DNA of 64,000 bases from a bacterium (GTDB lineage Bacteria > Cyanobacteriota > Vampirovibrionia > Gastranaerophilales > Gastranaerophilaceae): assembly GCA_024408855.1 (NCBI GenBank), contig JAKSUQ010000008.1, forward strand, positions 3,072-67,071, written 5' to 3'. The position numbers were made by a program, and so were the translations under genes. The stretch's first letter is position 1; every line of letters starts with the position of its first letter. Positions 6,748 to 57,549 of the stretch are shown here, one piece after another. The notes beneath the pieces were generated by a model. It did not search any database. It saw only the letters and a program-made list of their open reading frames with translations, and had not been told where the DNA came from.

Positions 6748-6821
6748 TTCTTACTTCTTTGTTATTTTGTACCAAAATAACAAAATCCCAAACCAATCAA
6801 TATATTAACAAAAAATAAACC

Positions 6822-6848
6822 AAAAAAAAAGCACCTTTTGCAAAGTGC
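6822..6848 (-). terminator. Putative intrinsic terminator after the small ORF at 6873-6998
   Basis: On the minus strand GCAC-TTTGCAAAAG-GTGC followed by T9. Confidence 0.5.
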
Positions 6849-6872
6849 CTTTGAGTAGATATTTAGATTTTT

Positions 6873-6998
6873 CTAAAAACTGAATAACCTTTCGAATTTA
6901 TACAACATGAATATTACCTGTTCTATTTTTTCCCTTATCCATAAATTAACAATTCCAATTTCATCATTAAAATTGTAACAACCCGGTAAATAATACAT
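6873..6998 (-). CDS. Small hypothetical protein, 41 aa (MYYLPGCYNFNDEIGIVNLWIREKIEQVIFMLYKFERLFSF)
   Basis: Translated by hand; AAGGAG Shine-Dalgarno 8 nt upstream of ATG; followed by a terminator. Below the ORF-track cutoff. Confidence 0.5.
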   Translation of the reverse strand: MYYLPGCYNFNDEIGIVNLWIREKIEQVIFMLYKFERLFSF

Positions 6999-7400
6999 GG
7001 CGTATGCTCCTTATAATTAATTCGACAATATCGTTAACGGCATTTTTTTGAAAAACTTTAGTAAATTTGCAATAATTGTTACAAAAATTTACATTTGCAT
7101 CTTTAAAAACTTGAAAATTTATGCGTAATTTTATGATTTGTCATGTGCCTATAATGTGCATTACAGTTGCATATTATAGATTTATCAGATTGATTTTATC
7201 TATAATAGACACTAATATTTGCGGAAACGATTTAACAATTATTGTACAAAGTACCCTTATTATCTTGACTCAAAATTTTGATGTAATACGATTATAGAAC
7301 ATGGTTTCATGTATATGGGATAATTATGTCCGAAATAGCAAAAATATAAATATTAATTTATAAACAGTGCGTACACCATTAGAATAGATGAGGTGAATTG

Positions 7401-10400: not shown

Positions 10401-10715
10401 GCTTATACTCTTCAAGAAATGCTTACTATTAAGTCTGATGATGTCAACGGACGTAACAGAGCTTATGAAGCGATTGTTAAAGGTGATAATATTCCAAGAC
10501 CAGGTATTCCGGAATCATTCAAGGTTCTTGTAAGAGAATTACAAAGTATCGGTCTTGATATCACTGTTGCGAAGAAGAATGGTGTTGAAGTAGATTTGAT
10601 GAGTGATATGGACGATATGAGAAAAGCAACTCCAAAGAGAACTCTTTCGGATATTGATTCAGAGTTGTTAAATATAAACTTCTTTGAAACATCTACAACA
10701 CTCGGTGAAATATAA
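7401..10715 (+). CDS. rpoB: DNA-directed RNA polymerase beta subunit
   Basis: [46 protein letters not shown]; SD GAGGTG before ATG 7401 (TTG 7398 is an alternative start). Confidence 0.98.
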
Positions 10716-10727
10716 GGAGAATTAAAA

Positions 10728-12437: not shown

Positions 12438-12490
12438 TTTAAGGCAAACAGTTTCCAAAGAGAATTTATTAAGATAAAGGAAAAGATAAT

Positions 12491-15400: not shown

Positions 15401-16360
15401 CGACCATACTTAATTAGCCCTGGTACTATGTTGCAGGTGAGCGAAGGTTCTTTGGTACTGAGAGGTGATATGTTAGCATCCTTGGTATTTGAAAGAGAAA
15501 AAACCGGTGATATCGTTCAAGGTTTGCCAAGAGTAGAAGAATTGCTCGAAGCAAGAAAACCTAAAGACTGTGCTATACTTGCAGAGCATGACGGTGTAGC
15601 TGAAATTGAAATTGAAGATGATGTACCAAGATTGTTCTTAGTAACTGATGAAGGTGCAAGAATTGAAATCAAGTTTGCAATTGATGCAAGCATAGTAGTT
15701 ACAAATAAACAAAAAATTAAAAAGGGTCAGCCGCTTACAAGCGGACCTCTGAATCCGCATGATGTAATAAGGTTATGCGGACCGGAAGAAGCTCAACAAT
15801 ATTTAGTTGATGAGGTTCAGAGGGTTTACCATTCTCAGGGTGTTGAAATCGCAGATAAACATATCGAAATAATTGTTCGTCAAATGACAAAGAAAGTTCG
15901 TGTTGTTGATTCCGGTGATACAAACTTATTACCTGGTGAATTGGTTGAAGTTCAGGTATTTGAAAATGAGAATAAAGCAGTAAGAGAACATGACGGACAA
16001 GAAGCAACTTGTGAGTACATGTTATTAGGTATTACAAAAGCATCTTTGAATACTGAAAGCTTCATTTCGGCTGCATCTTTCCAAGAAACTACAAGAATTC
16101 TTACAGAAGCTGCTGTTGACGGAAAGAAAGACTTATTAAGAGGTTTGAAAGAAAACGTTATTATAGGTCGTTTAATTCCTGCCGGAACGGGTTATCATCA
16201 TTTGTCTTTTGCAAATGAAGAACGTGATAAAGAAGCACAAAAACGTGCTGCTCAACGTAATCAGGCAAGAAAACCATCTGCAATATTGGAGGAAATCGAA
16301 GGAATGTTCGGTTCTCCGGAATTAGCAGAAGAAGCCGATAACTCTTCAAGTGAAGAATAA
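12491..16360 (+). CDS. rpoC2: RNA polymerase beta' subunit (C-terminal part) with a large trigger-loop insertion
   Basis: KTADSGYLTRRLVD, GEPGTQLTMRTFHTGG, long insert, then DIVQGLPRVEELLEAR and SFISAASFQETT. Confidence 0.96.
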   Translation: MENTYAHKSHTPDFINKQMDKGGLKKLLAQMYLEYGGAKTAELANTLKNLGYKYATKSGVTISIADLTVPETKKNLLKDAEAEIEKSTNRYLKGEITEVERYTKVIDTWSETTAKLTEQVVENFDKLNPVYMMAFSGARGNLSQVSQLVGMRGLMADAQGQIVDMPITSNFKEGLSVTEYIISSYGARKGLVDTALKTADSGYLTRRLVDVAQDVIIRGEDCGGDKYINMKPIMEGDTVIVPLIDRLLGRTVAQDIFDEDGKTILVAKNTTLDRKDIKRISHLNLTELKVRSGLTCSLEYGVCQKCYGWALTTQKLVDVGEAIGIIAAQSIGEPGTQLTMRTFHTGGAVGVKEAAREVVSTIAGTVASKIKTRELRTRHGDIVRVSICESDVEISNGKKSESYHIPAGATVFIEEGQKIEKNFVLAEYRPSSNESGRLTEKATKDINSDMSGEVLFEDFVADEKKDRQGNISRTANKNGIVWIIGGDVYNLPGGSKVLVEDEQKVKSGDKLAETLMISEHGGEIRYTEDLEIETVKNGKNVINKIVKGKEVTIVIASLTPKNATFEQTKKEQLWTVKKTGEKYIVKAPIDTTVENGMIIAELVDDECAVSSSGEIRYIDVEVDENQIVTKSGNIVFVPEEIHQINKDATLKMVENGTFVTAGTEVVKDVYCHIDGIVEFKEFNEVIHEVTIRPGEVHTLSSISELKIEEGTVVEAGTTIAKGIKAKETSIVTLMEMDFDDLDIDDLDEEIDTTMSLEEESLEDKPVQILIRPVQPLYIEPKEVSIKFNTTDELINIVPVTQLQFKDGARVRNIDGATLTRTSLVLQMQGYLSHLKGLVELDANGELKVVVLETLIVRREQEGGAKASSSLQTSLLVENGQIIEPKTAVAKTEVLAINDGVASIKGDISESRRLLINCSKYETVVPTKKKPSVKKGTFIKLDTPLAASEEVAPVSGIISDVSEKSVTIRNGRPYLISPGTMLQVSEGSLVLRGDMLASLVFEREKTGDIVQGLPRVEELLEARKPKDCAILAEHDGVAEIEIEDDVPRLFLVTDEGARIEIKFAIDASIVVTNKQKIKKGQPLTSGPLNPHDVIRLCGPEEAQQYLVDEVQRVYHSQGVEIADKHIEIIVRQMTKKVRVVDSGDTNLLPGELVEVQVFENENKAVREHDGQEATCEYMLLGITKASLNTESFISAASFQETTRILTEAAVDGKKDLLRGLKENVIIGRLIPAGTGYHHLSFANEERDKEAQKRAAQRNQARKPSAILEEIEGMFGSPELAEEADNSSSEE

Positions 16361-32246: not shown

Positions 32247-33200
32247 GTGGTTATTAATATAGAACAAGCCTCTGAATTATACCTTAATAACTATGCAAAA
32301 GTTTATTGCAAAAAATCAACTTGGAAAGGTTACGAGGGCTATTTGAAACATCACATATACGAATACTTAGGCGATTTAAAACTAATCGAAATGAGGCCAT
32401 TGCATGTACAAAATTTTATTAAAGATATGACTCAAACAGGTCTTGCTAATTCAACTATAAATCACTTAAAAAAGACTATTGGAGCTGTTTTTAATTTTAT
32501 GATTGATTCAGGTGTAATTTATCAAAATCCTGTTAATAGAATCAAATGTTTAAAAGTTAAAAATAATACTTTAATGCACCCACTAACAATTAAAGAAACC
32601 AACAAATTATTGAATGTTACTAAAAAGCATTACCCTGATTTTTATCCATTGCTATATATCGCAGTTAATACAGGCTTAAGACAGGGTGAATTGTTTGCTC
32701 TCACTTGGGATTGTGTTAATTTTGTTGAAAATTATATTGTTGTTAATAAAAGTTATACACATGGTGTCTTGGGCTCAACTAAAACAGGTGAAAACAGAAA
32801 CGTTAAAATATCTCTTATAGTTACAAAGTTTTTAAAAGAATGGAAAATGGCTTGTCCTAAAAGTGAGTTAAATCTTGTTTTTCCTAACGCAAACGGAAAT
32901 TATATGGACTCGCAAAATATGATGAAACGAAGATTTAAACCTGCTTTGGCTCTTGCCGGTATTGATAGTATAAGATTCCACGATTTAAGACATACTTATG
33001 CAAGCACACTTATTATTCAACAAGTGCCATTACCTTATATTTCAAAGCAATTAGGCCATTCAACAAACAAAGTTACACTTGATACTTATGTTCACTTAAT
33101 GCCGGAATCTGCTCAATTTGGTGATTCATTGCTTGAAAACTTGTATGAAGAAAAGGGCGCCGGACTAGAAGAATCAAATGTTAGAATGTTTGGCACATAA
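32247..33200 (+). pseudogene. N-terminally truncated tyrosine integrase (element B), paralog of 48531-49649
   Basis: Homology to the full integrase begins near ELYLNNYAK; about 63 N-terminal residues are missing; catalytic motifs TGLRQGE, FHDLRH, QLGHS, LDTY are intact. Confidence 0.8.
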
Positions 33201-33215
33201 ATATTTAGCCAATTA

Positions 33216-34355
33216 TCATTTGGAATTTTTATATATTAGTCCACAATTTTGTAACTCCAAAATCAAGTCTTTAACATCACTAATATCAGTTTTAGAGACG
33301 TCAAATGCAATTGCTAAAACATAGTTACTAGGTTTCTTAGAATCGAATTTATTAACATCAATGATACCAAAAGACAAGCCGTTTGTATAATCATATAAGT
33401 TAATACTATCTTTTTTGCATGAGAATTTGTCTTTATACTGTGTAAGTAGAGATGATATTTCAATATTACTTCTTAGGCTTGTATAATTATTATTGAAATA
33501 TAAATGTAACCACATATCATCTTTTCCAAAATCTGATACAGAAATTATTTCTTTTAATAATTCAAATGATTCAACAAAATTCAATGTTGACACTGTTATT
33601 GACATAAAATAATTATTAACACCAATGGTTTTGTCGTCTGGTTTTCGTTCATGTCCATGTATGTCAATTCTGATACCATTTACTAGGATTGTTTTTGAAA
33701 TCTCGCTCATTGAAAACCGAGGTTCATTAACAGAATAACTGATTTTCTTTGAATCTAAAAAATTCTTAATATCTGCGTAGTATTTTTCAATGTTGTATTT
33801 TTTTACCTCTCCAAAAATTTCATGTACTTCAGCATCGATTGTATAATTTGCGAAGGAAAACATATTATGAATATCAAAAACATTAGGTAACCCGAGCAAA
33901 TTTTTAATAAGGTCGTTATAATCTTCTTCAATAAAGCATTCTTCAAATTCTAAATTAAATTTGTCATTTATTGTTGAAATAAAGTTATTTAGACTGTCAT
34001 GAGAATTGATGTCAAATCCTTGGAGTAAATTTAATGGTGGTTTTAAATGTCCTATATTTATTCCTAGGCCAACAGGAATTACTTTGATTTTTTTTGCATA
34101 AGCGAAACCTGCTTCAAAATAAATCCAAGAAGAATTAATTGATGTAGGAGTAACAAAAACAAACATAATCTCCGCTTTGTCTAGTCCTTCTTCAATTTTA
34201 TGAACCCAATTTCTTCCTAAAGGAATACTTTGTCCATCACTTGACATAAATATATCAATAGATTTAGAAGTGATTTTTTCTATTTTATTCTTAATTGGGA
34301 TAATTACTTCTTTATCTTTACTTGAATGGCTAAAAAATATTGTAGGTTTACCCAT
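33216..34355 (-). CDS. TIR-domain protein (TIR_2-like) with an uncharacterised C-terminal domain
   Basis: MGKPTIFFSHSSKDKE, FMSSDG.SI..G..W, TPTSINSSWIYFEAG (catalytic Glu position), VIPVGL; SD AGGGAG before ATG 34355. Confidence 0.82.
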   Translation of the reverse strand: MGKPTIFFSHSSKDKEVIIPIKNKIEKITSKSIDIFMSSDGQSIPLGRNWVHKIEEGLDKAEIMFVFVTPTSINSSWIYFEAGFAYAKKIKVIPVGLGINIGHLKPPLNLLQGFDINSHDSLNNFISTINDKFNLEFEECFIEEDYNDLIKNLLGLPNVFDIHNMFSFANYTIDAEVHEIFGEVKKYNIEKYYADIKNFLDSKKISYSVNEPRFSMSEISKTILVNGIRIDIHGHERKPDDKTIGVNNYFMSITVSTLNFVESFELLKEIISVSDFGKDDMWLHLYFNNNYTSLRSNIEISSLLTQYKDKFSCKKDSINLYDYTNGLSFGIIDVNKFDSKKPSNYVLAIAFDVSKTDISDVKDLILELQNCGLIYKNSK

Positions 34356-34411
34356 TAACACATACTCCCTAGTTGGCATAACAATATTATTATAGTGCAT
34401 ATTAAAAAGAT

Positions 34412-34437
34412 TTTTGCAACTTTTTTGCAACTTTTTG
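34412..34437. repeat. 26-bp tandem TTGCAAC repeat, identical to 50435-50460
   Basis: TTTTGCAACTTTTTTGCAACTTTTTG at both loci; the first TTGCAAC is 77 bp from the att core in both. Confidence 0.85.
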
Positions 34438-34455
34438 AAAAAAAGGCACAAAAAA

Positions 34456-34497
34456 TACGCCTGCCGCGATTCGAACGCGGGACCCTCTGCTTAGAAG
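34456..34497 (-). other. att junction: 3' half of tRNA-Arg(UCU) starting at the anticodon loop
   Basis: Minus strand CTTCTAA GCAGA GGGTC CCGCG TTCGAAT CGCGG CAGGCGTA; identity with the tRNA starts exactly at CTTCTAA. Confidence 0.9.
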
Positions 34498-34847: not shown

Positions 34848-35033
34848 ATGGAACGAAAAATTATACACAATAGAATCAAATGTAAAAATTGCGGGGATAT
34901 AATAGAATCAATAAGTACACACGATTTTAAATTTTGTTCTTGTGGTAAAGTTGCAATAGACGGAGGTAAATCATACCTAAAACGAACAGGTAATCCAAAC
35001 GATTGGGAAGAATTAAGCAAATTTGAAAACTAA
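34848..35033 (+). CDS. Small Zn-ribbon protein (resembles DUF7695-type phage/MGE proteins)
   Basis: NRIKCKNCGDIIES..HDFKFCSCGKVAIDGG..YLKR; SD GAGG. Confidence 0.7.
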   Translation: MERKIIHNRIKCKNCGDIIESISTHDFKFCSCGKVAIDGGKSYLKRTGNPNDWEELSKFEN

Positions 35034-35614
35034 TATATTTTTATAACATTACTTGCAAGATGAGGTTTTAAATTTTCAATAAAGTTGGGAACTCTTGCAG
35101 CAAACATTTCTATTAATTCTTCTTTTTCTATTGGTGGATTAATTAATGATTTTTGCATTTCAATAAATGAATCATATACTTTATCTTTTGATAGGTAAAA
35201 AAGATTAATTAAAAAATCGTCAGGCGATTGAGCTTCTATATTGTATTCAAACAAAACTTCATTTGGAAAATCTTTTATATTGTTAGTAACAATAACTTGT
35301 GCATTACTTGAAATTGCAGCAGCTAATACGTGTCTATCTTTTTCATTGATACGTGGTTCATCTATTTTGGGTAATGTGGAATAATCATCAATAATAGCTT
35401 CCGGAAATGCTCCATTAAGGACTTTAATAAGTTTATCCACTTTTTCAATGGCAATCCTTTGAGATAAGTTACGTCTTAATTCTTCGCAAATCACTTTACT
35501 CCAAACTGGTTGATACAATTCTTTTTCAGCTAATCTTAATAAAATATCTCTCAATAAGGCATCATATAAAATACAAGTATCAATAACTACGGTAAAATTT
35601 CCTAATTTAATCAT
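35030..35614 (-). CDS. PIN-domain (PIN_3/VapC-like) protein
   Basis: VVIDTCILY, WS..I.EEL, KDRHVLAAA, IVTNNIKDF acidic PIN motifs. Confidence 0.85.
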   Translation of the reverse strand: MIKLGNFTVVIDTCILYDALLRDILLRLAEKELYQPVWSKVICEELRRNLSQRIAIEKVDKLIKVLNGAFPEAIIDDYSTLPKIDEPRINEKDRHVLAAAISSNAQVIVTNNIKDFPNEVLFEYNIEAQSPDDFLINLFYLSKDKVYDSFIEMQKSLINPPIEKEELIEMFAARVPNFIENLKPHLASNVIKIY

Positions 35615-36056
35615 ATAGCCCCAATTCTTGAGATAATTTAGACATTTCCTCTATATTTGCACGTCTATTTTCTGCTCTTTTGTCTCGATACTCAATTAAA
35701 TCTTGCATTAAAACTTTTCTATGAGTACCTGTTTTTCTGAATTTAATTGTACCATTTTCTAATAATTTTATAAAATAAGGTCTTGATACATTTAAAATAT
35801 CAGCAGCCTGTTGTGTTGTTAATTCTTTGTCCATAGGAATTAATGTTACAGAATCCCCATTATTTAATGTTTTAACAACTTCTGTTAATGCAACATAAAT
35901 AATCGAAGGAACTTCTATTTCTTGTCCATTAACAACGAGAGCAATTTTGCCAACACCAGATAAATTGTCAACCAAATTTGAAAGTTCCTTTTTTTCATTA
36001 TCAGAACTTGGTGGTTGAAATATATAACTACTTGCAAGATTTTGTCTACTGATCAT
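35607..36056 (-). CDS. Excisionase-family HTH (HTH_17) protein, putative antitoxin/regulator of the PIN gene
   Basis: LTTQQAADILNVSRPYFIKLLENGTIKFRKTGTHRKV; 8-nt overlap with the PIN gene. Confidence 0.82.
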   Translation of the reverse strand: MISRQNLASSYIFQPPSSDNEKKELSNLVDNLSGVGKIALVVNGQEIEVPSIIYVALTEVVKTLNNGDSVTLIPMDKELTTQQAADILNVSRPYFIKLLENGTIKFRKTGTHRKVLMQDLIEYRDKRAENRRANIEEMSKLSQELGLYD

Positions 36057-36454: not shown

Positions 36455-37576
36455 TTATGAATTAGTTGTAAAAGTTAATTCTTCTTGTGGTATTAGGATT
36501 CCACGTTTTGGATCGTGCTGATATGTAAACATTACTTTTTCCATAACCTCTTCTTCGCCAATAATATCATTAATTTTGTTCATCAATCTTTCTTGTGTTT
36601 CTTCATTATGATAATAAATATTTATTTTAGAATTCGAATTTATAAGAAGAATGTGTTTTAAAATATTTTCATCTGTATTATCAAGTGAATGTCCAATTAC
36701 GTGAAATACTGGCATCGATTTAGATTTTTTAATTCTTCGCAATAAATCTTGATATGGCTCTATGGTTCCATATTTATGTCTTTGGTTATGTTTTTTAAAT
36801 ACATTAAAATCCATAGGCATAGTATAGGGTGGTAATTTATCAAAGCTTTGTGTACCTAATATTAAATTACATTCATTATTATTGTTTTCAACTTTTCCAT
36901 GTACATAAACAGGTTTTATATTTATATCACAATATCCACTAAACTTTGCTTTATAAAATCTTTCACAAGTATCAGTATAATTAAAATTAAGAATATGTAC
37001 ATCCTTGCTACCTTCTGTTACGCCTATTGATTTCAATGAAAGTTTATATTTAGACTCAGACTCAATATGATTTAATACCTCATTTATCAAATAATTTTCA
37101 AATAATTTAGTAAATTCTCTTAATTGGTCATATAAAAAATTAACCACCCCTCTTGGCGTTTTAAAATATAATTTAAGTTGTATTTCGTTATAAGGATCGC
37201 ATTTTAAATATCCTTTTTCTGCTGAAGTAGAACCCATAGGTTCAATAAGATATTTTGTAAAATTATAAAAATTAAAAATCCCATCATCATAATTCATATT
37301 GAATATTCTCTGATAATTCGATGAATTTATTATAGGAAGTTGAGAGATATGTTGAATAACTTTGAATATTTCTTTTTCTAAGTCTATCCAAGTATCCCCC
37401 ATTTTTTGTTGAACATTTATAAAATGTCTTATCCATAAATTATTATAATATTTATCAGTAGGTTTATAAGTCGGGAATTTATGAAATTGATTACAGCAAT
37501 AATTTAAAAAATCACTATACTTGGTCTTTAATCCATGTGCTAAATCAAATCCATTACCTAAAATCAAAATATTCAT
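36455..37576 (-). CDS. AbiH family abortive-infection protein
   Basis: Signature MNILILGNGFDLAHGLKTKYSDF, LNFNYT, YVHG, GHSL..TD motifs. Confidence 0.85.
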   Translation of the reverse strand: MNILILGNGFDLAHGLKTKYSDFLNYCCNQFHKFPTYKPTDKYYNNLWIRHFINVQQKMGDTWIDLEKEIFKVIQHISQLPIINSSNYQRIFNMNYDDGIFNFYNFTKYLIEPMGSTSAEKGYLKCDPYNEIQLKLYFKTPRGVVNFLYDQLREFTKLFENYLINEVLNHIESESKYKLSLKSIGVTEGSKDVHILNFNYTDTCERFYKAKFSGYCDINIKPVYVHGKVENNNNECNLILGTQSFDKLPPYTMPMDFNVFKKHNQRHKYGTIEPYQDLLRRIKKSKSMPVFHVIGHSLDNTDENILKHILLINSNSKINIYYHNEETQERLMNKINDIIGEEEVMEKVMFTYQHDPKRGILIPQEELTFTTNS

Positions 37577-37580
37577 ATTA

Positions 37581-39359
37581 TTACCTTATATACGGCGTCT
37601 TAAAACCGAGATTTTTTAGACGGATGTTCATTGCCAGTGGATTTACATCAAAATGTTTTGCACATTCTTTTATAAATTTTTCGTCTAAAAATTCTTTGTC
37701 TGTCTTATTTTCATCTTGCACATACTGTAAAACATATTCTTCCGGCATGAGAATTTCAGCAGCTAAACTATCTGCTTCATATTCCATCAACTTTGAGCCA
37801 GATTCTTCGGATTTTCTGCCAAGTGTTCCATTTTTTAATTCTTTTTTGTGTTTCAGAATATGACCAATTTCGTGTGCAATAGTAAAGTTATCTCTCGGAT
37901 CTTTTACTGCAATCTCGTATAAGTCTTTTTCTTTGTTATACGAAACAGCACCTTTTTTTTGTTCATTATCTTTGTATACTAAAATCCCATTTTCTCTTGC
38001 AAATTGATCAATATTCATCTTGCCATGGGTTTGCCAAAACTCTAAAGATTTTTCAATAATTTTATCTTCAGATAAATCATCCTCATCAGAAACCATAACT
38101 GTGATTTGGCCATTCATAAGCATTGGTAGCAAAAAATCTCTTAAATTTGCAAGTGATAAATTTTCTTGCTTACACAAAATCATTTGTTTATAGATATCTT
38201 TAACTTTTTCAGTGTATTTATTTATTAGTTCTGTGGGCGGTATTACAATCTTGCTTTGTTCAAGATGGTCGGTTGTAATATGTCCCATCGTTGTTTTCCT
38301 AGCTTCTGCAATTCTTACAAAGTTATTGACATAAGCCGAAAGTTGCTGATAAACATATTCTTTTGTATACGACTCTTTAGGTACAACTTTAAATATATGT
38401 TGATTTAAACCGGCATCCACCCCTGTCCATAACATCACTTCTAGAGTAGCAGACCAAGAAAAGAGGATATCTCCAGCATAAATTTTATTTTTGTCAGGAA
38501 TATTTTTTCTTACAAACTCTGTTTCTTCTGTTATACCATTATGCATTTCTCCGATTTTAACAACAGGCATATATTCTTCATTTTCTTTTGGACGGTATTT
38601 TTGACAGGCTAAACCATTAAAAAAATCTGCAATTCTATACAAATTATCAATTTCCCAATCAATAGGTATTTCTTTTTTTAAAACTTCATTGTAAATCATC
38701 GTTCCGCCATTGGATTTATATGGCTTTCCATGAATATTAGGAAAATCAAATTGAACAAACCAATAATCATATATAGTTTTTGTAATATTTTCTAATATAC
38801 AATAGATGTTATTATTTGTATTTATTTTTTCATCTATTGTATATAAAATATTTGCAATATTTTTTTGAGTTGATATATCCGGATATTCAATTGATAAATC
38901 TTGTTGATCAAGGATTCCAATATAGGCTCTTGTAGATCCGCAGCCTGCATATTTTTTTATTCTTTTTTGGAACGTTGGAGAATCAAAATAATATTTTAAA
39001 TACACATTATTGAGGACATTTGGATCTTTTATCCGATAATATGTTACTTGTGGAGTAAGCATTATATAATCATCTTTTATATTGCTAACAATCGCAGTTC
39101 TTCCAATTGTTGCTTTATGAGTTAATAAAACATCTCCTTCTATCGCAAAGCCTTTTGGTAATGTTAAAGATTGTTCTTTGGTAATATATTTGCAAGTTTT
39201 ATAATTTATCAAACCATTATTAATATCAGAAGCCATAATAAACGGGATTCCCGATGTTACATAATCACTAGCTTTTGGGTGATATTCCCCATGATTACCA
39301 TCAATAGGTTGAAATAAAATATTCTCATCTATTAATTCAGAAATTGTTTTATTGTTCAT
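37581..39359 (-). CDS. hsdS: Type I RM specificity subunit fused to a C-terminal ImmA/IrrE-type metallopeptidase
   Basis: Two TRDs with central conserved region YDYWFVQFDFP...GKPYKSNGG...EIPIDW and the usual HsdS end LRDFLLPMLMNGQITV; then 171 extra aa with FTIAHEIGH and EYEADSLAAEILMP. Confidence 0.85.
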   Translation of the reverse strand: MNNKTISELIDENILFQPIDGNHGEYHPKASDYVTSGIPFIMASDINNGLINYKTCKYITKEQSLTLPKGFAIEGDVLLTHKATIGRTAIVSNIKDDYIMLTPQVTYYRIKDPNVLNNVYLKYYFDSPTFQKRIKKYAGCGSTRAYIGILDQQDLSIEYPDISTQKNIANILYTIDEKINTNNNIYCILENITKTIYDYWFVQFDFPNIHGKPYKSNGGTMIYNEVLKKEIPIDWEIDNLYRIADFFNGLACQKYRPKENEEYMPVVKIGEMHNGITEETEFVRKNIPDKNKIYAGDILFSWSATLEVMLWTGVDAGLNQHIFKVVPKESYTKEYVYQQLSAYVNNFVRIAEARKTTMGHITTDHLEQSKIVIPPTELINKYTEKVKDIYKQMILCKQENLSLANLRDFLLPMLMNGQITVMVSDEDDLSEDKIIEKSLEFWQTHGKMNIDQFARENGILVYKDNEQKKGAVSYNKEKDLYEIAVKDPRDNFTIAHEIGHILKHKKELKNGTLGRKSEESGSKLMEYEADSLAAEILMPEEYVLQYVQDENKTDKEFLDEKFIKECAKHFDVNPLAMNIRLKNLGFKTPYIR

Positions 39360-40995
39360 AACAAATTAGCTCCATTTGTTTTTGAATTTTTTGTTCTAAT
39401 GTATGAGAATTACTGTACAATTTTGTAAGATTTTCATTATATTCATCTATTTTACTTTTAAATTGTTCTTGGGTAAGGTCAATATATTCAGTTTTTATTT
39501 CAAAATATTGACCTGCAGAAAATGAATAATTCTTTTTTTCTATTTCATGAAAAGAAACATGAGTTGAAAAATCTTCTATTTCTTCTTTATTCTGAAAAAC
39601 TCTAATAATTTTATTTTCTTCTTCCACTGATAGAATAGTCTTTTGTTTATCGTCTTCTTTTATTGTAGTTCCTAAATTTGAAGCATCTACCAATAAGACT
39701 TTTTCAGAATTACATACTTTGTCGATAAATAAAACAGAAACATTAGTTCCAGTATTAGCAAAAATATTCGAAGGCATAGAGACTACACCCTTTAACCATT
39801 TTTCATCTATTAGTTTTTTTCTTATATTATATGCTATCTTATTGCTTCTTTTAGACGCTGCTAAAAAACCAGTTGGAACAACAACAGCTGCTTTTCCTTC
39901 TGTACTCAAAGAATATAAAATGTGCTGCAAAAAACATAAATATATTGCCATATCATCTAAATCTTTTGGAGGTATTTTAGGAATTCCTCCAAAAAATCTT
40001 TCTGTACTATTTGTTTGTGTTGTTAATTCATTTCTATATTCTGAAAAATCAAGTTTAAAAGGAGGATTAGAAACAATATAATCGAATTTCTTTAATTGAT
40101 TATTTTCCTTATGTTCAGGGTTAGTTAGAGTATTCCCTTTAATAATATTAGCAATAGAACTCACTAAATTATTTAAAATCAAATTTAACCTTAGCATTGT
40201 TGATGATTTTTGTGATATATCTTGAGAATAAATTGCACATTTATCTTCACCTATCGCGTGAGCTAAACTCATTAGTAAAGATCCGGTTCCAGCAGATGGA
40301 TCATAGCAAGTTACATTTCTAACATCATCATCCCCGACAAGAATCTTAGCCATAATTTCGGCAACACTATGAGGGGTATAGTACTCCGCATATTTTCCGC
40401 CGCCGTCTTTATTATAATCTTTGATTAAGTATTCAAAAATTGTTGCAAAAAAATCAAATTTTTGAGTAAACATTTTTTCAAAACTAAAATCAACAACGGC
40501 GTTTATTAATGATCTTGCGAAATTATCGCGCTCAGAAACATCAGTTATATAATTACTAATGGTTTCAAATAGTTGAATTTTTTCACCTTTAGCCGTTTTT
40601 ACAGCAAAAATATCATTATTTTTAACTGCAATATCAATCAAAGTATCGTCTAAAAGTTTTGCAAATTCAGGATTGTTTTGATTATTAAACAAGTGCGAAA
40701 TATAATGTTCCCTTTGTAATTGTGCAGAACTTTCATTTATTCGATACAATAATTTTTTGTATTCTTCATCAGAATATTTTTTAATTTCATCTTCCCATTT
40801 TTCTGCATTTCGGAGTCTTGGTTCAAGCTCCTTTATCTCATAAGCGAATTTATCATTTAAAAATTTATATAAAAATATTTGTACTATAATCTTATATTCG
40901 TTACCATCATTGCCTAAACCATAAATTCCACATATTGATTTTAATTTATCAACTAGAGCTTTAGTTTGTTCCACAAAAAACTGCATATCAGTCAT
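39349..40995 (-). CDS. hsdM: Type I RM N6-adenine methyltransferase
   Basis: AEYYTPHSVA, YDPSAGTGSLL (motif I), VSNPPF (motif IV). Confidence 0.92.
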   Translation of the reverse strand: MTDMQFFVEQTKALVDKLKSICGIYGLGNDGNEYKIIVQIFLYKFLNDKFAYEIKELEPRLRNAEKWEDEIKKYSDEEYKKLLYRINESSAQLQREHYISHLFNNQNNPEFAKLLDDTLIDIAVKNNDIFAVKTAKGEKIQLFETISNYITDVSERDNFARSLINAVVDFSFEKMFTQKFDFFATIFEYLIKDYNKDGGGKYAEYYTPHSVAEIMAKILVGDDDVRNVTCYDPSAGTGSLLMSLAHAIGEDKCAIYSQDISQKSSTMLRLNLILNNLVSSIANIIKGNTLTNPEHKENNQLKKFDYIVSNPPFKLDFSEYRNELTTQTNSTERFFGGIPKIPPKDLDDMAIYLCFLQHILYSLSTEGKAAVVVPTGFLAASKRSNKIAYNIRKKLIDEKWLKGVVSMPSNIFANTGTNVSVLFIDKVCNSEKVLLVDASNLGTTIKEDDKQKTILSVEEENKIIRVFQNKEEIEDFSTHVSFHEIEKKNYSFSAGQYFEIKTEYIDLTQEQFKSKIDEYNENLTKLYSNSHTLEQKIQKQMELICYEQ

Positions 40996-43900
40996 TATGC
41001 TACATCTCCATTATATTCTTTCATATATTCATCTACTATTAAATTATTAATAGATTCAGTTGTTTTGGTATCTATATTAATGTTTTTAGAATCAAACACC
41101 AGTGTTATGAATCGCATTATCATCCGTTTAAAAAAACCTTCATTTTTTACAACTGCACTATTATTCATGATATTTTCATCTGCTTGCTGTTTTATATCCT
41201 GCAAAGCTTCAGAAATTTTCATTTCCTCCTTTGGAGTTGAAGGGCTTCTTTTTTGCATTATGCGTTTATGCACTCTTGCATATTTTTTGTCATTATCATA
41301 TTTTGCAAGTAATAGATTATTTCTTCTATTTAAATCAACAACTCTATGATAAATATCTTCGATTAAACTTATATTTTGCTGCATTTCTTCTTGAGAAACT
41401 TCATATATATCACGTTTAGCAAAAATTCTTTCTAGTTCTTCTTTTAGGGAACACCACTCCGGATCTTTCTTATCAAAGTTGCTGTTAATAGCTTCTCTTG
41501 TTCTTGCAAGAGTATTTCTTAAATTATCTGCAATTTTAAGTTCTGCTTCACCTATCTTTGAAAATTTGAAAACAATATCTTCCATAGCAACATTTAAAAG
41601 CTCTGAGATATCGACATTATTTTCAATCTTTTCCATATAGTTAATATCTGCTATACGAAGCTCTACCATCTTTAAAAGGTCAGCATATTTTCTAAAATCA
41701 AGCCTTTGCAGTAATTCTTCATTGCCCTGGCATCGAATAATATTTTGTAATTCTTTTGCTAAAATTAATGCTTTTCTTAAACCTAAAAGAATTTTCTTAT
41801 CTTCAATTTCATTAATCTGTTGATTAAATATTTCTAAATTTCTTGTTTCGTAAGGATATAAAACTGTTTTTATTTCATCAATATCATTTTTAATATCTTC
41901 TTCTGATTTAAATATTTGAGAGAATTTTGCAACTTCATCGCCCAATTCATTCTGCAATTCATCCCAGTATGCTTTATTTACTTTATCAAATTCATCTCGG
42001 ATGTCCGTAAAATCAACAACATAGCCGTATCTGAATTCATTATATGGTCTATTAACTCTTGTCAGAGTTTGTAGTAAATTATGTTCTTTAATTTCTCTAT
42101 CCATATACAATTTTTTAAGACGAGGAGCATCAAAGCCTGTTAGGAGCATATTGTATACAAATAAAATATCGATTTTGCCATTTTTAAAATCATCTACGTA
42201 GCCTTTTCTGATTTCTTTGTCATCAATATCACATAAAATTAATGCAGCAGTTTTAATTGAGTTTTTATCAGTAGCTTTGTCTTTATAATGTTCCTCAAAA
42301 ATTTTAAAAAACATTTTTGCCTGTTCGGAACTACTACAGACAACCATTCCCCCAATTGTACTATCATTATATGCAATTCGCGATTTTCTCATATCCTCTG
42401 CAATATATTCAAGCATAGGTGTGACAAATTTTTCGTCAGCATAAACTTTCTTTTCTACAACATCGCCATGTTTAACAAGAATTGTATCTAAAACTTCTTT
42501 TAACTTTGCCTTGTATTGAGTTTCAATATCTTCACGAATTAGTTTTAATGTGTATCCATCAGCAATAGATGAATTGTAATAATACTGATGAATATAATCG
42601 CCCCATAATTCTTTTGAAGCAGCTCTATTCTTTCCTGCAAGTAACGGTGTTCCTGTCAAAGATATGAATATAGCATTTTTATCAAGGCTCATAAGATTTG
42701 CAAAATAAGAGCCTGTTGGTTTGTAGCTTCTATGGGCTTCATCAATAAAGTAAATCCTTTGAATATTAATACCATAATCACTTGGTTTAATGGTTGTATC
42801 CGGTGGAATTTTTTGAATGTTAATAACCGTTATTTCATCTTTTCCGATATCATTCTCAATAGCACCCTTTTTATTTTCAAATTCTTTTGCCAAGTCACTT
42901 TTTGAATTAACTGTATGAACTGTTAAACCACGACTTCTAAATTCTTTTTCTGCCTGCGCTTTTAAATCAAGTCTGTCTACTATAAAGTAGAACTTAGGAA
43001 TAACGCCTTTTTTGCTAAAATAATCTTTTAAAAGTTTGACATTATAATAAGCTAAAGCAGTTTTTCCTGAACCTTGGGTATGCCAAACTATGCCACGCTT
43101 AATATCTGAATCAAGTTTATTTTGAATCGCTTTTGATGCGAAGTACTGAGGATAACGCATTATGTGTTTTTCTATATGAATATTATCGTCATCGTCTTTT
43201 CTTTCAACATAAACCAAAGAATATTGTAAAAAATCTTTCAAGCGCTCTTTTGAAAACAAAGATAAAAGCATTCTATTTGTCGGTGTTGAGATTTGTTTAT
43301 TTGTTTTAAATTCTGCAGAGTGCTTAATTACAGTATTGTTTGTATCTTTTAGAATAAAGTTTTCATCATCTTCATTTAGCGGTTTTAGCTTTAAAGATAA
43401 TCTTTCAAGTTCTTCTGGTTTATCTCTAAAACAGTTGAAGAAAGCTTTTGAAGTAGATGTTGTTCCATAAAATGCACCATGTACCGGAGTAATAGATTCG
43501 TTATCATAGTCCATATTATTAGAAAACATCATAATTTGAGTTATGTTTATAAATTTCTTAAATTTTTTATTTGCAAAACGCATATTCATTCTGTTACGTT
43601 CTGCCATAATTCCTTCTCTGTTGTGGGGTTTTTTCACTTCAATAAAACATAAAGGCATACCATTGATTAATAATGTTATATCCGGTCTAAATTCTTCTTC
43701 ATCTTTCTTGCACTCTAATTCTGTTACAACATTAAAGCTATTTTTATCAAAGTTATCAAAATCTATTAACTTGATTCCTGATTGAGGGAGCAACATTTTT
43801 TCATAAAAACTTCTGCCTAAATCATCATTATCTAATTTCAGGTTTATGTCTTGTAATAATCGTTTTATATCATCATCTGACAAATTTTTGTCATGGTTGA

Positions 43901-44048
43901 TTCGCTTTATGCTATCTGAAAAAATATCCATAAAGATATTCATTTCAGTATCTATGTTGGCTTTTTTCAAAGATATATAGCTATAACCCAATCTTGTTAA
44001 TGTCAAAATTGCAGGTATTTTTACTCTTGTGTCTTCATTAAAAGCCAT
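40995..44048 (-). CDS. hsdR: Type I RM restriction subunit
   Basis: FRPDITLLINGMPLCFIEVKK nuclease motif, WHTQGSGKT, IDEAHRS, LTGTP, MLLTGFDAP, QTLTRVNR. Confidence 0.92.
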   Translation of the reverse strand: MAFNEDTRVKIPAILTLTRLGYSYISLKKANIDTEMNIFMDIFSDSIKRINHDKNLSDDDIKRLLQDINLKLDNDDLGRSFYEKMLLPQSGIKLIDFDNFDKNSFNVVTELECKKDEEEFRPDITLLINGMPLCFIEVKKPHNREGIMAERNRMNMRFANKKFKKFINITQIMMFSNNMDYDNESITPVHGAFYGTTSTSKAFFNCFRDKPEELERLSLKLKPLNEDDENFILKDTNNTVIKHSAEFKTNKQISTPTNRMLLSLFSKERLKDFLQYSLVYVERKDDDDNIHIEKHIMRYPQYFASKAIQNKLDSDIKRGIVWHTQGSGKTALAYYNVKLLKDYFSKKGVIPKFYFIVDRLDLKAQAEKEFRSRGLTVHTVNSKSDLAKEFENKKGAIENDIGKDEITVINIQKIPPDTTIKPSDYGINIQRIYFIDEAHRSYKPTGSYFANLMSLDKNAIFISLTGTPLLAGKNRAASKELWGDYIHQYYYNSSIADGYTLKLIREDIETQYKAKLKEVLDTILVKHGDVVEKKVYADEKFVTPMLEYIAEDMRKSRIAYNDSTIGGMVVCSSSEQAKMFFKIFEEHYKDKATDKNSIKTAALILCDIDDKEIRKGYVDDFKNGKIDILFVYNMLLTGFDAPRLKKLYMDREIKEHNLLQTLTRVNRPYNEFRYGYVVDFTDIRDEFDKVNKAYWDELQNELGDEVAKFSQIFKSEEDIKNDIDEIKTVLYPYETRNLEIFNQQINEIEDKKILLGLRKALILAKELQNIIRCQGNEELLQRLDFRKYADLLKMVELRIADINYMEKIENNVDISELLNVAMEDIVFKFSKIGEAELKIADNLRNTLARTREAINSNFDKKDPEWCSLKEELERIFAKRDIYEVSQEEMQQNISLIEDIYHRVVDLNRRNNLLLAKYDNDKKYARVHKRIMQKRSPSTPKEEMKISEALQDIKQQADENIMNNSAVVKNEGFFKRMIMRFITLVFDSKNINIDTKTTESINNLIVDEYMKEYNGDVA

Positions 44049-48530: not shown

Positions 48531-49649
48531 ATGCCAGCAGTAAGAAAAAATAAACAGAAAAACAAATGGGAATTTGATTACAAAGACTTAAGAGGAAATC
48601 GCAAAACAAAAGGCGGTTTTCTTACCAAAGTTGAAGCAGAAAAAGCCCAAGCAAAGATGATTGATGAACTTAATAAAGGTTTGTTTATTGCAAATGACAA
48701 GCTGACTTTTAGAGAAGCTGCTGAATTATACCTTAATAACTATGCAAAAGTTTATTGCAAAAAATCAACTTGGAAAGGTTACGAGGGCTATTTGAAACAT
48801 CACATATACGAATACTTAGGCGATTTAAAACTAATCGAAATGAGGCCATTGCATGTACAAAATTTTATTAAAGATATGACTCAAACAGGTCTTGCTAATT
48901 CAACTATAAATCACTTAAAAAAGACTATTGGAGCTGTTTTTAATTTTATGATTGATTCAGGTGTAATTTATCAAAATCCTGTTAATAGAATCAAATGTTT
49001 AAAAGTTAAAAATAATACCTTAATGCACCCACTAACAATAAAAGAGACAAATAAGTTATTAACCGTTACTAAAAAACATTATCCTGATTTTTATCCATTG
49101 CTTTATATTGCAGTTAATACAGGTTTAAGAGAGGGTGAATTATTTGCTCTCACTTGGGATTGTGTTAATTTTGTTGAAAATTATATTGTTGTAAATAAAA
49201 GTTATACCCATGGTGTCTTGGGCTCAACAAAAACAGGCAAAGACAGGAAAGTTAAAATATCTAACTCAGTTACAAAATTTTTAAAAGAATGGAAAATGGC
49301 TTGCCCTAAAAGTGAATTAAATCTCGTTTTCCCTAATGCAAACGGGAATTATATGGATTCACAAAATATGATGAAAAGAAGATTTAAACCTGCTTTAGCT
49401 CTTGCAGGCATTGATAGTATAAGATTTCACGATTTAAGGCATACATACGCAAGCACACTTATTATTCAACAAGTGCCAATCCCTTATATTTCAAAACAAT
49501 TAGGACACTCAACAAACAAAGTTACTCTTGATACGTACATTCATTTAATGCCTGAATCTGCTCAATTTGGTGATTCATTGCTTGAAAACTTATATGAAAT
49601 AAGGGACGCAGAACTAGAAGAATCAAATGTTAAAAGGTTTGGTACATAA
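48531..49649 (+). CDS. Tyrosine integrase with N-terminal arm-binding domain
   Basis: N-terminal KWEFDYKDLRGNRKTKGGFLTK; catalytic TGLREGE, FHDLRH, QLGHS, LDTY; SD AGGAG. Confidence 0.93.
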   Translation: MPAVRKNKQKNKWEFDYKDLRGNRKTKGGFLTKVEAEKAQAKMIDELNKGLFIANDKLTFREAAELYLNNYAKVYCKKSTWKGYEGYLKHHIYEYLGDLKLIEMRPLHVQNFIKDMTQTGLANSTINHLKKTIGAVFNFMIDSGVIYQNPVNRIKCLKVKNNTLMHPLTIKETNKLLTVTKKHYPDFYPLLYIAVNTGLREGELFALTWDCVNFVENYIVVNKSYTHGVLGSTKTGKDRKVKISNSVTKFLKEWKMACPKSELNLVFPNANGNYMDSQNMMKRRFKPALALAGIDSIRFHDLRHTYASTLIIQQVPIPYISKQLGHSTNKVTLDTYIHLMPESAQFGDSLLENLYEIRDAELEESNVKRFGT

Positions 49650-50460: not shown

Positions 50461-50478
50461 GGTTTTGGCATGAAAAAA

Positions 50479-50552
50479 TACGCCCGGCGCGATTCGAACG
50501 CGCGACCCTCTGCTTAGAAGGCAGATGCTCTATCCAGCTGAGCTACGGACGC
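50479..50552 (-). tRNA. trnR: tRNA-Arg(UCU), no encoded CCA, 3' half probably supplied by element A
   Basis: GCGTCCG TA GCTC AGCTGGATA GAGC A TCTGC CTTCTAA GCAGA GGGTC GCGCG TTCGAAT CGCGC CGGGCGT A folds as a 74-nt cloverleaf. Confidence 0.93.
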
Positions 50553-50595
50553 ATAAGTTATGTTTATTTAATTGTCAAATTTTTGTTTTTTCTGT

Positions 50596-50650
50596 GCCCC
50601 TGACCCACCGCTTAGAAGGCAGATGCTCTATCCAGCTGAGCTACGGACGC
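50596..50650 (-). pseudogene. Duplicated 5' half of tRNA-Arg(UCU) joined to a truncated divergent 3' arm
   Basis: 50610-50650 is identical to 50512-50552 (41 bp, 98-bp offset); then GGTGGGTCAGGGG, with no T loop. Confidence 0.85.
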
Positions 50651-50662
50651 ATCACATCTTCT

Positions 50663-56047: not shown

Positions 56048-56056
56048 ACATGATAC

Positions 56057-56128
56057 GGCGACATGGCCAAGTGGTAAGGCAGAAGCCTGCAAAGCTTTTA
56101 TCCCCCAGTTCGAATCTGGGTGTCGCCT
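56057..56128 (+). tRNA. trnC: tRNA-Cys(GCA)
   Basis: GGCGACA...GAAGC CTGCAAA GCTTT...CCCAG TTCGAAT CTGGG TGTCGCC T; U73 discriminator. Confidence 0.95.
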
Positions 56129-56163
56129 TTTTTAATTTACAAGCTGATCACAAATTTATTTAT

Positions 56164-57549
56164 ATGGAAAATATTGAATTAAAGCGTTTATGGGAGCAAA
56201 TTAAAGGGGAAATAGTAAGGGAATTGCCTGACTGTGCATTGCCATGGGTGGAGCCCTTGGAAATCACAGGGTTTGATAATGGGGTGTTGTCCGTAGTAAC
56301 CGGTCAATTAATGGGCAGAGATATCCTTCGCAGAAATTATTATTCTCAAATAGTTGAAATTATTAAAAAAGTAACCAATAATCCTAACTCCGATTTTGTT
56401 ATTATTTATGATGAAAAAGCAACAAAATCCATAAAAAAAGAAAACGAGAAAATTCAAAAAAAGATTGTAGAAACCGCATTAAAGGAGCAGGCTATGGAAA
56501 ATTTGTCCTATATGCAATCTGCTTCCAATCTGAATTTAAAATATAAATTTGAAAATTATGTTGTAGGAAAAAATAATGAGTTTGCTTACAAGGTTGCAAA
56601 GTCTGTTGCTGAATATCCGGCAGAAAAATACAATCCGTTATTTATATACGGAAAGTCAGGCTTGGGAAAAACACATTTAATGCAGGCAATCGGACATTAT
56701 ACATTATTTAAAAATTCAAAATTTAAAGTCAAATATACTAAAACCGAAGACTATGTCAATGATTTTATTTCTAACAGCCGTAAAGGAAAAGATACCATTG
56801 AAAATATGTCTAAATTTTATAAAAAATATTCGAATATTGATATAATTCTAATTGATGATATTCAGTTTATAGAATCGAAAAATAAGACTATGCTTCAAAT
56901 GCAGCATACATTTGACAGTCTTTATAATAAAGGAAAGCAAATCGTAATAACATCAGACAGACTCCCAAAAGATATACCGACATTAACTTCAGCTTTATGT
57001 ACAAGGTTTGAAATGGGGTTGATGGTAGAGCTTGTAACCCCTGAATATCAAAATCGATTTGATATTCTTAAAAAACTTTCTGAGGATAGCGGGCTGAAGT
57101 ATACTGATGATGCTTTGGAATATATAGCTAATAATTACGTAAATAATGTACGCGAATTAGAAGGTGCGTTTCATAAAGCAGCGGCTTTTGCTGAAATTAA
57201 TGCAACCGATTTAACTTTGGATGTGGTGAAAACTGTTTTAAAGTGCAGTGAAAATACCGCAAAAAATACATTTGAAGATATTGTTGGAGTAACGGCAAAA
57301 TTTTATGAAGTAAGTCCAGAAGATATTAAAGGTACGGCAAGAGGTCAAAAAGTTGCAAATGCAAGACATATGTCGATTTATTTATCAAGAGAGTTGACAG
57401 GGAAAAGTTTTGTGTCGATTGCGGAATATTTTAACAAAAAGCATACTACAATTATGTATTCTTATGAAAAAATCAATAAAGAGCTCCGCACAAATAATGA
57501 ATTAGGTAATGCCGAACGAGAGATTAGACAAGCATTAAGATTAATATAG
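56164..57549 (+). CDS. dnaA: Chromosomal replication initiator
   Basis: LKYKFENYVVG, YNPLFIYGKSGLGKTHL, LIDDIQF, NVRELEGA, domain IV HTT; ATG 56164 (the track start lies in the tRNA region). Confidence 0.92.
   Translation: MENIELKRLWEQIKGEIVRELPDCALPWVEPLEITGFDNGVLSVVTGQLMGRDILRRNYYSQIVEIIKKVTNNPNSDFVIIYDEKATKSIKKENEKIQKKIVETALKEQAMENLSYMQSASNLNLKYKFENYVVGKNNEFAYKVAKSVAEYPAEKYNPLFIYGKSGLGKTHLMQAIGHYTLFKNSKFKVKYTKTEDYVNDFISNSRKGKDTIENMSKFYKKYSNIDIILIDDIQFIESKNKTMLQMQHTFDSLYNKGKQIVITSDRLPKDIPTLTSALCTRFEMGLMVELVTPEYQNRFDILKKLSEDSGLKYTDDALEYIANNYVNNVRELEGAFHKAAAFAEINATDLTLDVVKTVLKCSENTAKNTFEDIVGVTAKFYEVSPEDIKGTARGQKVANARHMSIYLSRELTGKSFVSIAEYFNKKHTTIMYSYEKINKELRTNNELGNAEREIRQALRLI

Follow-up and report, generated by a model that had tools for sequence, protein, structure and literature searches.

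We analyzed a 64-kb window (the whole stretch of DNA under study, taken from contig JAKSUQ010000008.1 of assembly GCA_024408855.1; all positions count from its first nucleotide), in which a first-pass annotation had noticed an hsdS gene of a Type I restriction-modification (RM) system continuing in frame into an ImmA/IrrE-type metallopeptidase. The window almost certainly encodes a predicted functional Type I RM operon whose specificity subunit, HsdS, bears on a flexible acidic linker a CapP/IrrE-type peptidase of the Peptidase_M78 family, catalytically intact by its motifs; this fusion appears to be ancient and under selection in a clade of peptidases tethered to RM subunits. By its predicted fold and chemistry the tail is an M78 peptidase of the CapP/IrrE branch, and the system that carries it is predicted to be Type I RM. 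The HsdS-M78 architecture is apparently undescribed so far: full-text literature searches found no paper on an HsdS fused to an M78/ImmA domain, in agreement with the first-pass annotation. By analogy, the tethered protease may be a built-in post-translational control of its own RM complex, a role to which we assign a probability of about 0.35.

Structure and recurrence of the hsdS::M78 fusion

The fusion gene and its parts were as follows.

37581-39359, minus strand: hsdS::M78 fusion gene, a single reading frame of 592 amino acids (aa) plus stop
38097-39359, minus strand: HsdS module, aa 1-421, with the first target recognition domain (TRD1), a central helix, TRD2 and a C-terminal helix ending in LLPMLMNGQITV (Pfam, PADLOC, AlphaFold2 (AF2), Foldseek)
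38070-38114, minus strand: acidic flexible linker, aa 416-430, NGQITVMVSDEDDLS; low predicted local distance difference test (pLDDT) score, variable among homologues
37584-38069, minus strand: Peptidase_M78 domain of CapP/IrrE type, without a GAF domain, aa 431-592 (Pfam PF06114, PADLOC CapP, AF2, Foldseek)
37860-37874, minus strand: HEIGH zinc-binding/catalytic motif, aa 496-500 (H496, E497, H500), invariant in a 66-sequence alignment
37782-37784, minus strand: E526, predicted third zinc ligand, the first E of MEYEAD, present in at least 90% of the aligned sequences

The single open reading frame (ORF) contained two stretches of Methylase_S (PF01420, E 9.8e-18) followed by Peptidase_M78 (PF06114) at aa 487-582, with 51.1 bits against a cut-off of 22 (E 1.4e-13). 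The PADLOC model Specificity_I (PDLC03068) covered aa 17-425 over profile positions 16-401 of 403 (E 3.6e-100). Two globular TRDs with long helices at aa 162-203 and 376-415 were present in the full-length AF2 model, and the HsdS part matched the HsdS structures 1yf2, 2y7c, 3okg and 5ybb in Foldseek; aa 1-421 thus possess the two TRDs and two long conserved helices of a Type I HsdS. The usual HsdS C-terminus, LLPMLMNGQITV, was located at aa 410-421 (38097-38132) and was followed directly by an acidic linker of about 10 residues (MVSDEDDLS), after which the peptidase domain takes up some 160 aa. Since pLDDT fell below 50 at aa 422-427 and the predicted template modelling score of the whole chain was only 0.43, this region is probably a flexible tether between HsdS and the peptidase; its sequence differed from homologue to homologue. 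The zinc site of the peptidase (HExxH plus a downstream Glu) was present, the segment EYEADSLAAEILMP after HEIGH bearing the predicted ligand E526. The positions given by the first-pass annotation for LLPMLMNGQITV, HEIGH (37860-37874) and the ATG at 38096 were exact. This ATG encodes Met422, in place of which homologues have V, L, I or S; therefore, neither a hidden second start nor a cryptic second gene is indicated.

The first-pass annotation had considered that sequencing reads might reveal a stop codon or a frameshift at the junction. None was found in the contigs of four public gut-metagenome runs (X1-X4) that cover the hsdS::M78 gene and cross position 38096. Run X1 contained an identical 15.6-kb contig; a 13-kb contig of X2, a separate study, was about 95% identical with zero indels across 37600-39359, and the contigs of X3 and X4 spanned codon 422 at position 38096 without gaps. 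Among the best 120 HsdS homologues, both PF01420 and PF06114 were found in 23 other clusters at 90% identity (proteins of 562-600 aa), and about a dozen further representatives at 50% identity had the same architecture. The genome matches were metagenome-assembled genomes labelled Gastranaerophilales, Vampirovibrio, 'Cyanobacteria UBA1221' or uncultured rumen/gut bacteria. This makes the host a gut melainabacterium; its G+C content is about 32%. None of the fused proteins checked carried a source name, except for one with the JGI label 'Zn-dependent peptidase ImmA'. The fusion was absent from PLSDB plasmids, in which tblastn with the tail gave only two distant free-standing ImmA/IrrE genes.

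The tail was conserved far beyond the module to which it is attached. In tblastn comparisons it was 78-96% identical between proteins whose HsdS parts shared 28-37%, i.e., the TRDs had been entirely swapped and the tail kept. Across two sub-lineages, the tail remained 80-87% identical, with HsdR and HsdM down to 59-67%. Pairwise ratios of nonsynonymous to synonymous substitution (dN/dS) in the tail were 0.04-0.09 at dS of 0.5-2.3.

These data bear on the reading in which the fusion is an accident, i.e., the stop codon separating hsdS from an adjacent M78 gene was lost, or the assembly is at fault, and the tail has no role. It has some points in its favour: one locus (L044) has the split layout of hsdS, 39 nucleotides (nt), a gene for a 175-aa M78 protein and a gene for a protein with two transmembrane (TM) helices, and decayed remnants of the fusion occur in L056 and L057. 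The latter are short low-coverage contigs with truncated or frameshifted hsdS::M78 remnants; in L057, an N-terminal fragment of hsdR is joined to tail fragments. Against it stand the in-frame junction in four independent runs, the other 23 clusters and dozen or so representatives sharing the architecture, the low dN/dS of the tail, its invariant catalytic residues and its persistence through TRD exchange. The accident or artefact is very improbable and is largely refuted by the reads, the recurrence and dN/dS. The suspicion in the first-pass annotation that the fusion could be a singleton with homologues encoded as separate genes was thus dispelled with respect to the former; with respect to the latter, there is at least one split version, in L044, but it is an exception among the closest relatives.

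Type of the peptidase and its relatives

CapP was the best PADLOC profile match of the tail (E 4.8e-21, profile positions 11-153 of 242); RmrA profiles of RosmerTA matched the catalytic core more weakly (E 1e-10 to 1e-6, positions about 188-270 of 363). A profile built from 66 relatives matched the solved structures of CapP (7t5t), 9vzy and IrrE (3dte, 8slm). The AF2 model of the tail had a pLDDT of 91.6, and its best Foldseek match was again CapP 7t5t (E 7.6e-6, query template-modelling score TMq 0.63), followed by IrrE/PprI (3dti, 3dte, 8sln). E526 was aligned with the ligand Glu of CapP, which is E128 (10.64898/2026.05.16.725639).

CapP consists of a peptidase (1-141), a helix-turn-helix (HTH)-like part (142-182) and a GAF domain (182-288); single-stranded DNA (ssDNA) binds in the groove between peptidase and GAF, and the zinc is blocked by a cysteine-switch loop, which is found in many CapP proteins (10.64898/2026.05.16.725639). 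The tail stops after a short helical subdomain and thus comprises the peptidase and the helical part only, with no C-terminal GAF domain. The cysteine switch is absent: the loop that connects HExxH to the Glu ligand does not contain the sole cysteine of the tail, which is its residue 145 (C566). Directly before [ST]-I-A-H-E, the fused clade has x-D-N-[FWY], where free-standing relatives and CapP have R-x-R-F. Judged by spacing, the first Arg of R-x-R-F probably corresponds to the ssDNA-contacting R90 of Escherichia coli CapP; the window protein retains this Arg as R489, and most other fused members lack it. Because HExxH and the Glu are kept while GAF, cysteine switch and R-x-R are lost, the protease chemistry is, as far as the alignment tells, conserved and the known sensor apparatus is not. 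The description 'damage- or ssDNA-activated', which the first-pass annotation had given for such proteases, is therefore not transferable from CapP or IrrE, as GAF, which forms half of the ssDNA groove, is missing together with the cysteine switch, and R-x-R is replaced by x-D-N.

The tail resembles CapP/CapH in its profile, solved-structure and fold matches, in the HExxH...E site with a small helical subdomain after it, and in its tie to defence loci. It differs, besides the lost sensor parts, in having no CapH-like gene beside it in the window and in being fused to HsdS on the same strand, whereas CapP is encoded divergently upstream. With ImmA/ImmR and IrrE(PprI)/DdrO it shares PF06114, the fold (3dti, 3dte, 8sln) and the pairing of a protease with a DNA-binding partner; here, however, the partner is a covalently attached Type I specificity subunit and not a repressor of the XRE family. 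Its M78 core also matches several RmrA profiles, and the free-standing relatives with their small putative membrane toxins resemble a toxin-antitoxin layout; in contrast to RosmerTA, the tail has no HTH domain, only the catalytic core aligns, and PADLOC found no RmrT-like gene in the window. Since a cognate XRE substrate, a GAF sensor, and the combination of HTH plus M78 with RmrT are lacking, the fusion was not filed under CapH/CapP, ImmR/ImmA or Rosmer.

An exhaustive HMMER search with the tail against 1.84 billion representatives gave 1523 matches at E ≤ 1e-3 and 72 at E ≤ 1e-10, and the highest of them were mostly proteins of 546-665 aa matching at the C-terminus. Methylase_S was confirmed by Pfam in P0121, P0123-P0125, P0128, P0130-P0132, P0137 and P0141. 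More distant tails (36-53% identity) were borne by HsdS proteins from Type I operons of other organisation, by a half-HsdS with one TRD (P0128) and by a Type IIG enzyme. The last (P0129, 1286 aa, in L052) contains an Eco57I/MmeI-type methyltransferase, a TaqI_C specificity domain and the M78 tail, and its gene lies after a PLD-SNF2 helicase gene. The order of genes in L050 was hsdM-x-hsdS::M78-[CBASS effector with two TM helices (2TM), SMODS, DUF2188, DUF4917/PDC-S21]-hsdR-YgjP, where CBASS denotes a cyclic-oligonucleotide-based anti-phage signalling system; in L051, it was EcoEI-type hsdR-AAA_15-hsdM-RhuM-x-hsdS::M78. In the L050 operon (5831-16265), the insert between hsdS::M78 and hsdR also encodes a 130-aa protein, and the gene after hsdR encodes a YgjP/SprT-like metalloprotease. 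By their predicted domains, the members of this group are RM systems of Type I, and also of Type IIG, that have a peptidase built in.

In a neighbour-joining tree of 84 M78 domains, all 18 RM-fused tails formed one group (exact bipartition in 47 of 100 bootstraps, at most one taxon misplaced in 85 of 100). Their nearest free-standing relative, P0126 (40% identity), is encoded 39 nt downstream of the hsdS gene in L044, i.e., the two layouts form a split/fused pair. Five free-standing relatives (L043-L047; e.g., L043 224-1039) were M78 proteins of about 175 aa without an HTH domain, and each of their genes is overlapped by, or followed within 9 nt by, a gene for a 92-106-aa protein with two predicted TM helices; a small DUF6471 gene lies upstream in one of these loci. 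Distant M78 loci in genomes (L006-L042) and metagenomes (L058-L112) were dropped, as no hsd genes were detectable in them with the window's proteins or they were not informative. One HsdS relative without the tail (P0012, 644 aa, 56% identity) had a different C-terminal extension of about 210 aa, for which Pfam gave a single match, weak but full-length, to SocA/Panacea (E 0.23); HsdS C-termini may therefore accept several kinds of accessory domain.

In three RM architectures (Type I HsdS, half-HsdS and Type IIG TRD), it is the target-recognition module to which M78 is attached, as would be expected if the peptidase acted as an anti-anti-restriction device, i.e., if it sat on the subunit forming the DNA groove and degraded docking phage or plasmid inhibitors (Ocr-, ArdA- or ArdB-like), keeping the RM system active. 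Its tether is predicted to be flexible; the M2S groove is a known docking place of DNA mimics (PDB 2y7c and 7bst were among the fold matches), and the better conservation of the tail compared with HsdR or HsdM is what tracking of a conserved class of foreign proteins would produce. However, no inhibitor is known for these hosts, and characterised M78 enzymes are highly specific for one cognate repressor rather than for broad inhibitor classes. We consider this role improbable.

Operon, downstream genes and mobile context

The remaining features of the operon and its island were as follows.

40995-44048, minus strand: hsdR, Type I restriction/translocase subunit, 1017 aa (Pfam HSDR_N, SWI2_SNF2, ResIII, T1R_D3-like; PADLOC REase_I)
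39349-40995, minus strand: hsdM, Type I N6-adenine methyltransferase, 548 aa (Pfam N6_Mtase, E 1.9e-66; PADLOC MTase_I PDLC03033 over its full length, E 8e-251)
36455-37576, minus strand: abiH, 373 aa, starting 4 nt past the hsdS::M78 stop (Pfam AbiH, E 4.3e-32); variable cargo slot
48531-49649: tyrosine integrase gene of the island
50478-50553, minus strand: tRNA-Arg(TCT), the integration site (Rfam scan)
34455-34497: 43-nt copy of the tRNA-Arg 3' half with 3 mismatches, distal att repeat (sequence match to the tRNA gene)

The genes hsdR and hsdM share 1 nt, and hsdM overlaps hsdS::M78 by 11 nt; because of these overlaps and of the spacing to abiH, the four genes hsdR-hsdM-hsdS::M78-abiH probably form one operon. 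Consensus promoter and terminator matches in the operon were fewer than or similar to those in shuffled sequence. The nearest solved relative of the window HsdR was EcoR124I HsdR.

The downstream slot of the operon was variable. AbiH was encoded there in the window, L001 and L005/L116; in L002-L004, L054/L055 and L113, the slot held HamA and a HIRAN-containing HamB (Hachiman), and in L118 a 112-aa C-terminally anchored membrane protein. The Hachiman-like pair of L002 (10523-14888; also in L003, L004, L054 and L113) consists of HamA (274 aa) and a HamB helicase of 1182 aa whose C-terminus bears a HIRAN domain. L048 had no same-strand gene for 343 nt downstream, followed by an HTH_3 gene. In an unfused sister operon (L120, HsdS 65% identical), candidate defence genes (PDC-S32) followed hsdS directly, and HTH_26 was encoded upstream. 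AbiH had no similarity to a 367-aa protein of L043 and no match among solved structures. The AbiH of the window (36455-37576) and the DUF4917/PDC-S21 protein of L050 (11403-12539) share three collinear motifs (LxxGNGF, NYD, GHSLDxxDxxI) with BLASTP E of 0.006 and 0.011, which suggests that they are distantly homologous.

The position of these genes raises the possibility that the peptidase is a trigger or guard coupled to the RM system, which would report the state of the RM complex (occupation by a DNA mimic, stalling on phage DNA) and then activate or release a downstream abortive-infection protein, as a proteolytic analogue of PrrC-EcoprrI. In the latter, the nuclease PrrC is masked by the RM complex, with no protease and no HsdS fusion involved. 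The abortive-infection gene is likewise co-transcribed with hsd genes, which suggests a coupling of RM status to a second-line response. The position of abiH puts an effector gene with the hsd genes in the same manner, but such a layout alone does not prove coupling. In 15 of 16 loci examined, the next gene after M78, fused or free-standing, was on the same strand and overlapped or followed within 87 nt (usually within 15 nt), and each of these genes encodes a known or plausible effector: AbiH, HamA-HamB, the 2TM CBASS effector with SMODS (L050) or TM proteins (L051, L052, L118 and the free-standing L043-L047). CapP and RmrA, the closest characterised relatives, are regulators or antitoxins of defence systems, and the extension of P0012, with its SocA/Panacea antitoxin match, points in the same direction. 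On the other hand, AbiH, Hachiman and CBASS are known to work as systems on their own, effectors of this kind are not known targets of any M78 enzyme, and a single protease would have to serve unrelated ones. Since the slot is filled by PDC-S32 genes in L120, it exists independently of M78, and in L048 it holds no same-strand gene before HTH_3. We regard a guard function as possible but rather doubtful. Its most explicit form, in which the HsdS-tethered peptidase would be a signal transducer that makes the Type I complex a sensor of infection and, when this complex is blocked by an anti-restriction protein or stalled on foreign DNA, switches on whichever module lies downstream (AbiH, Hachiman, CBASS or a membrane toxin), i.e., a modular, proteolytic relay from first-line to second-line defence, is unlikely.

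A further alternative is CapP-like transcriptional control, in which the tail would cleave an XRE-type repressor encoded elsewhere and so induce the RM operon and/or the downstream defence genes. The CapP profile and fold matches are consistent with this; an HTH_3 gene of about 90 codons immediately precedes hsdR in L113 and L118 (only in these two), another HTH_3 gene follows the fusion in L048, and in L050 the fusion occurs together with CBASS and DUF2188, both of which have been reported alongside CapH/CapP-like pairs. However, no XRE gene is present in L001-L005, L054 or L116, nor was a cognate XRE-family HTH partner found in the island of the window in a Pfam scan of the listed ORFs or in tblastn with four HTH proteins of sister loci, which bears out the first-pass annotation on this point. 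The upstream HTH_26 also occurs in the unfused L120, so the upstream HTH belongs to the RM family and not to M78, and the GAF domain and cysteine switch of CapP are absent. Control of this kind is quite improbable.

The operon is part of an island of about 16 kb bounded by tRNA-Arg and its 43-nt copy. It contains orf66, an HTH_17-PIN_3 pair, abiH, hsdS::M78, hsdM, hsdR, two ORFs of unknown function, a gene for a VapE-like 858-aa protein, the tyrosine integrase gene and a gene for a GIY-YIG protein. The HTH_17-PIN_3 pair (35030-36056) consists of overlapping genes for a 149-aa HTH_17/excisionase-type protein and a PIN_3 protein (RSP_2648 family, E 5e-34) and resembles a toxin-antitoxin module. 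Just beyond the edge of the island (32247-34451), there are genes for another tyrosine integrase, which is shorter (317 aa), and for a TIR-domain protein of 411 aa. The gene of this integrase has a 29-nt identical stretch in common with the island integrase gene; the TIR protein has a ThsB-like N-terminus, an unmatched C-terminal two-thirds and no ThsA partner. These genes may be a remnant of a tandem island. None of the HTH_17-PIN pair, the TIR protein and the window's integrase recurs in the sister loci, and a link of M78 to any of them was therefore rejected. The first-pass annotation had suggested that the peptidase might act on AbiH, release the PIN toxin or induce excision; these links proved unconserved, as sister loci have Hachiman or a small membrane protein in place of AbiH and possess neither the HTH_17-PIN pair nor this integrase.

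In L113 (99-3677), L116 (13629-16667) and L118 (387-3820), genes for TnsB-like (Mu-transpos_C), TniB-like (AAA_22) and Phage_int_SAM_3 proteins lie beside the RM-M78 cassette. As the cassette adjoins TnsB-like and TniB-like genes, it is probably cargo of Tn7/Tn5053-like transposons in these three loci.

An Rfam scan of the whole window found two tRNAs only. A separate copy of the tRNA-Arg 5' half lies at about 50610-50655, some 60 nt past the gene. A program-called DnaA-like ORF (56050-57549) opens 7 nt before tRNA-Cys (56057-56128) and runs through it; its true start is therefore downstream.

Proposed proteolytic control of the RM complex

The role to which we gave a probability of about 0.35, built-in proteolytic control of the RM complex, was proposed by analogy. 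M78 enzymes cleave a cognate DNA-binding protein (10.1101/2022.04.27.489752), as is known of every characterised member (ImmA, IrrE and CapP), and the partner fused here is the DNA-recognition module of the RM enzyme. The tethered peptidase would cut a subunit of its own complex (HsdR, HsdM or HsdS) once the enzyme has engaged host DNA that is unmodified or damaged, or just after the cassette has entered an unmethylated genome. The outcome would be restriction alleviation independent of host ClpXP or Lon, i.e., a portable self-immunity brake for an RM cassette moving on islands and transposons.

Several lines of evidence are consistent with this. The sole constant partners of the RM-fused M78 clade are RM modules: hsdR-hsdM-hsdS, in this order, in the window, L001-L005, L048, L054, L113, L116 and L118, the rearranged operons of L050 and L051, the half-HsdS P0128 and the Type IIG enzyme P0129 of L052. 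Together with the clustering of RM-fused tails, this supports control of the RM complex, as do the strong selection and the intact catalytic residues throughout. The downstream and HTH genes vary and are therefore not the conserved substrate. The cassette is mobile, on the tRNA-Arg island and as putative transposon cargo, which also agrees with the proposed brake. Finally, Type I restriction is elsewhere disarmed by proteolysis: it is shut off by ClpXP proteolysis of translocating HsdR (PMC4231737), and Lon-like proteases act on HsdR and HsdMS (10.1101/2024.10.21.619520). The job proposed here would resemble that of ClpXP on EcoKI HsdR and of the Pseudomonas aeruginosa Lon-like proteases, a proteolytic switch-off of a Type I enzyme against self-restriction; those proteases, however, are host-encoded, ATP-dependent and of unrelated fold, whereas the M78 tail would belong to the RM complex itself. 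The plasmid anti-restriction protein ArdC likewise combines a gluzincin (IrrE/Spartan-like) protease domain with a functional link to Type I hsdRMS, but its protease activity is dispensable for anti-restriction (PMC7213743). In contrast to the tail, ArdC is encoded by the invader and counters restriction, and the two have no sequence kinship beyond the fold class.

Other observations weigh against such self-control. The M78 domain is dispensable for this RM family, since close relatives of HsdS within it (e.g., P0003-P0011 and L120, at 55-65% identity) do without it. The partners of the nearest free-standing M78 proteins are small two-TM proteins, and the short contigs in question mostly carry no RM gene (L045-L047), so that the ancestral role looks linked to toxins or effectors and not to RM. 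Homology does not imply a trigger by DNA damage, as the tail lacks those parts of CapP/IrrE that sense ssDNA. In addition, a toxic or abortive-infection gene almost always lies directly after M78, which would be a coincidence if the peptidase served self-control.

Type I RM enzymes endanger their own host, and proteolysis is the known way of taming them, so far by host ATP-dependent proteases only. If the tethered peptidase does control its own complex, it would be the first self-contained, portable restriction brake, common to Type I and Type IIG enzymes, and of advantage to a cassette moving from genome to genome. Alternatively, it could provide a direct molecular link of restriction to abortive infection or to counter-counter-defence. 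Either answer would also tell what the orphan M78 peptidases of this entire clade, which lack an HTH partner as well as a GAF sensor, are for.

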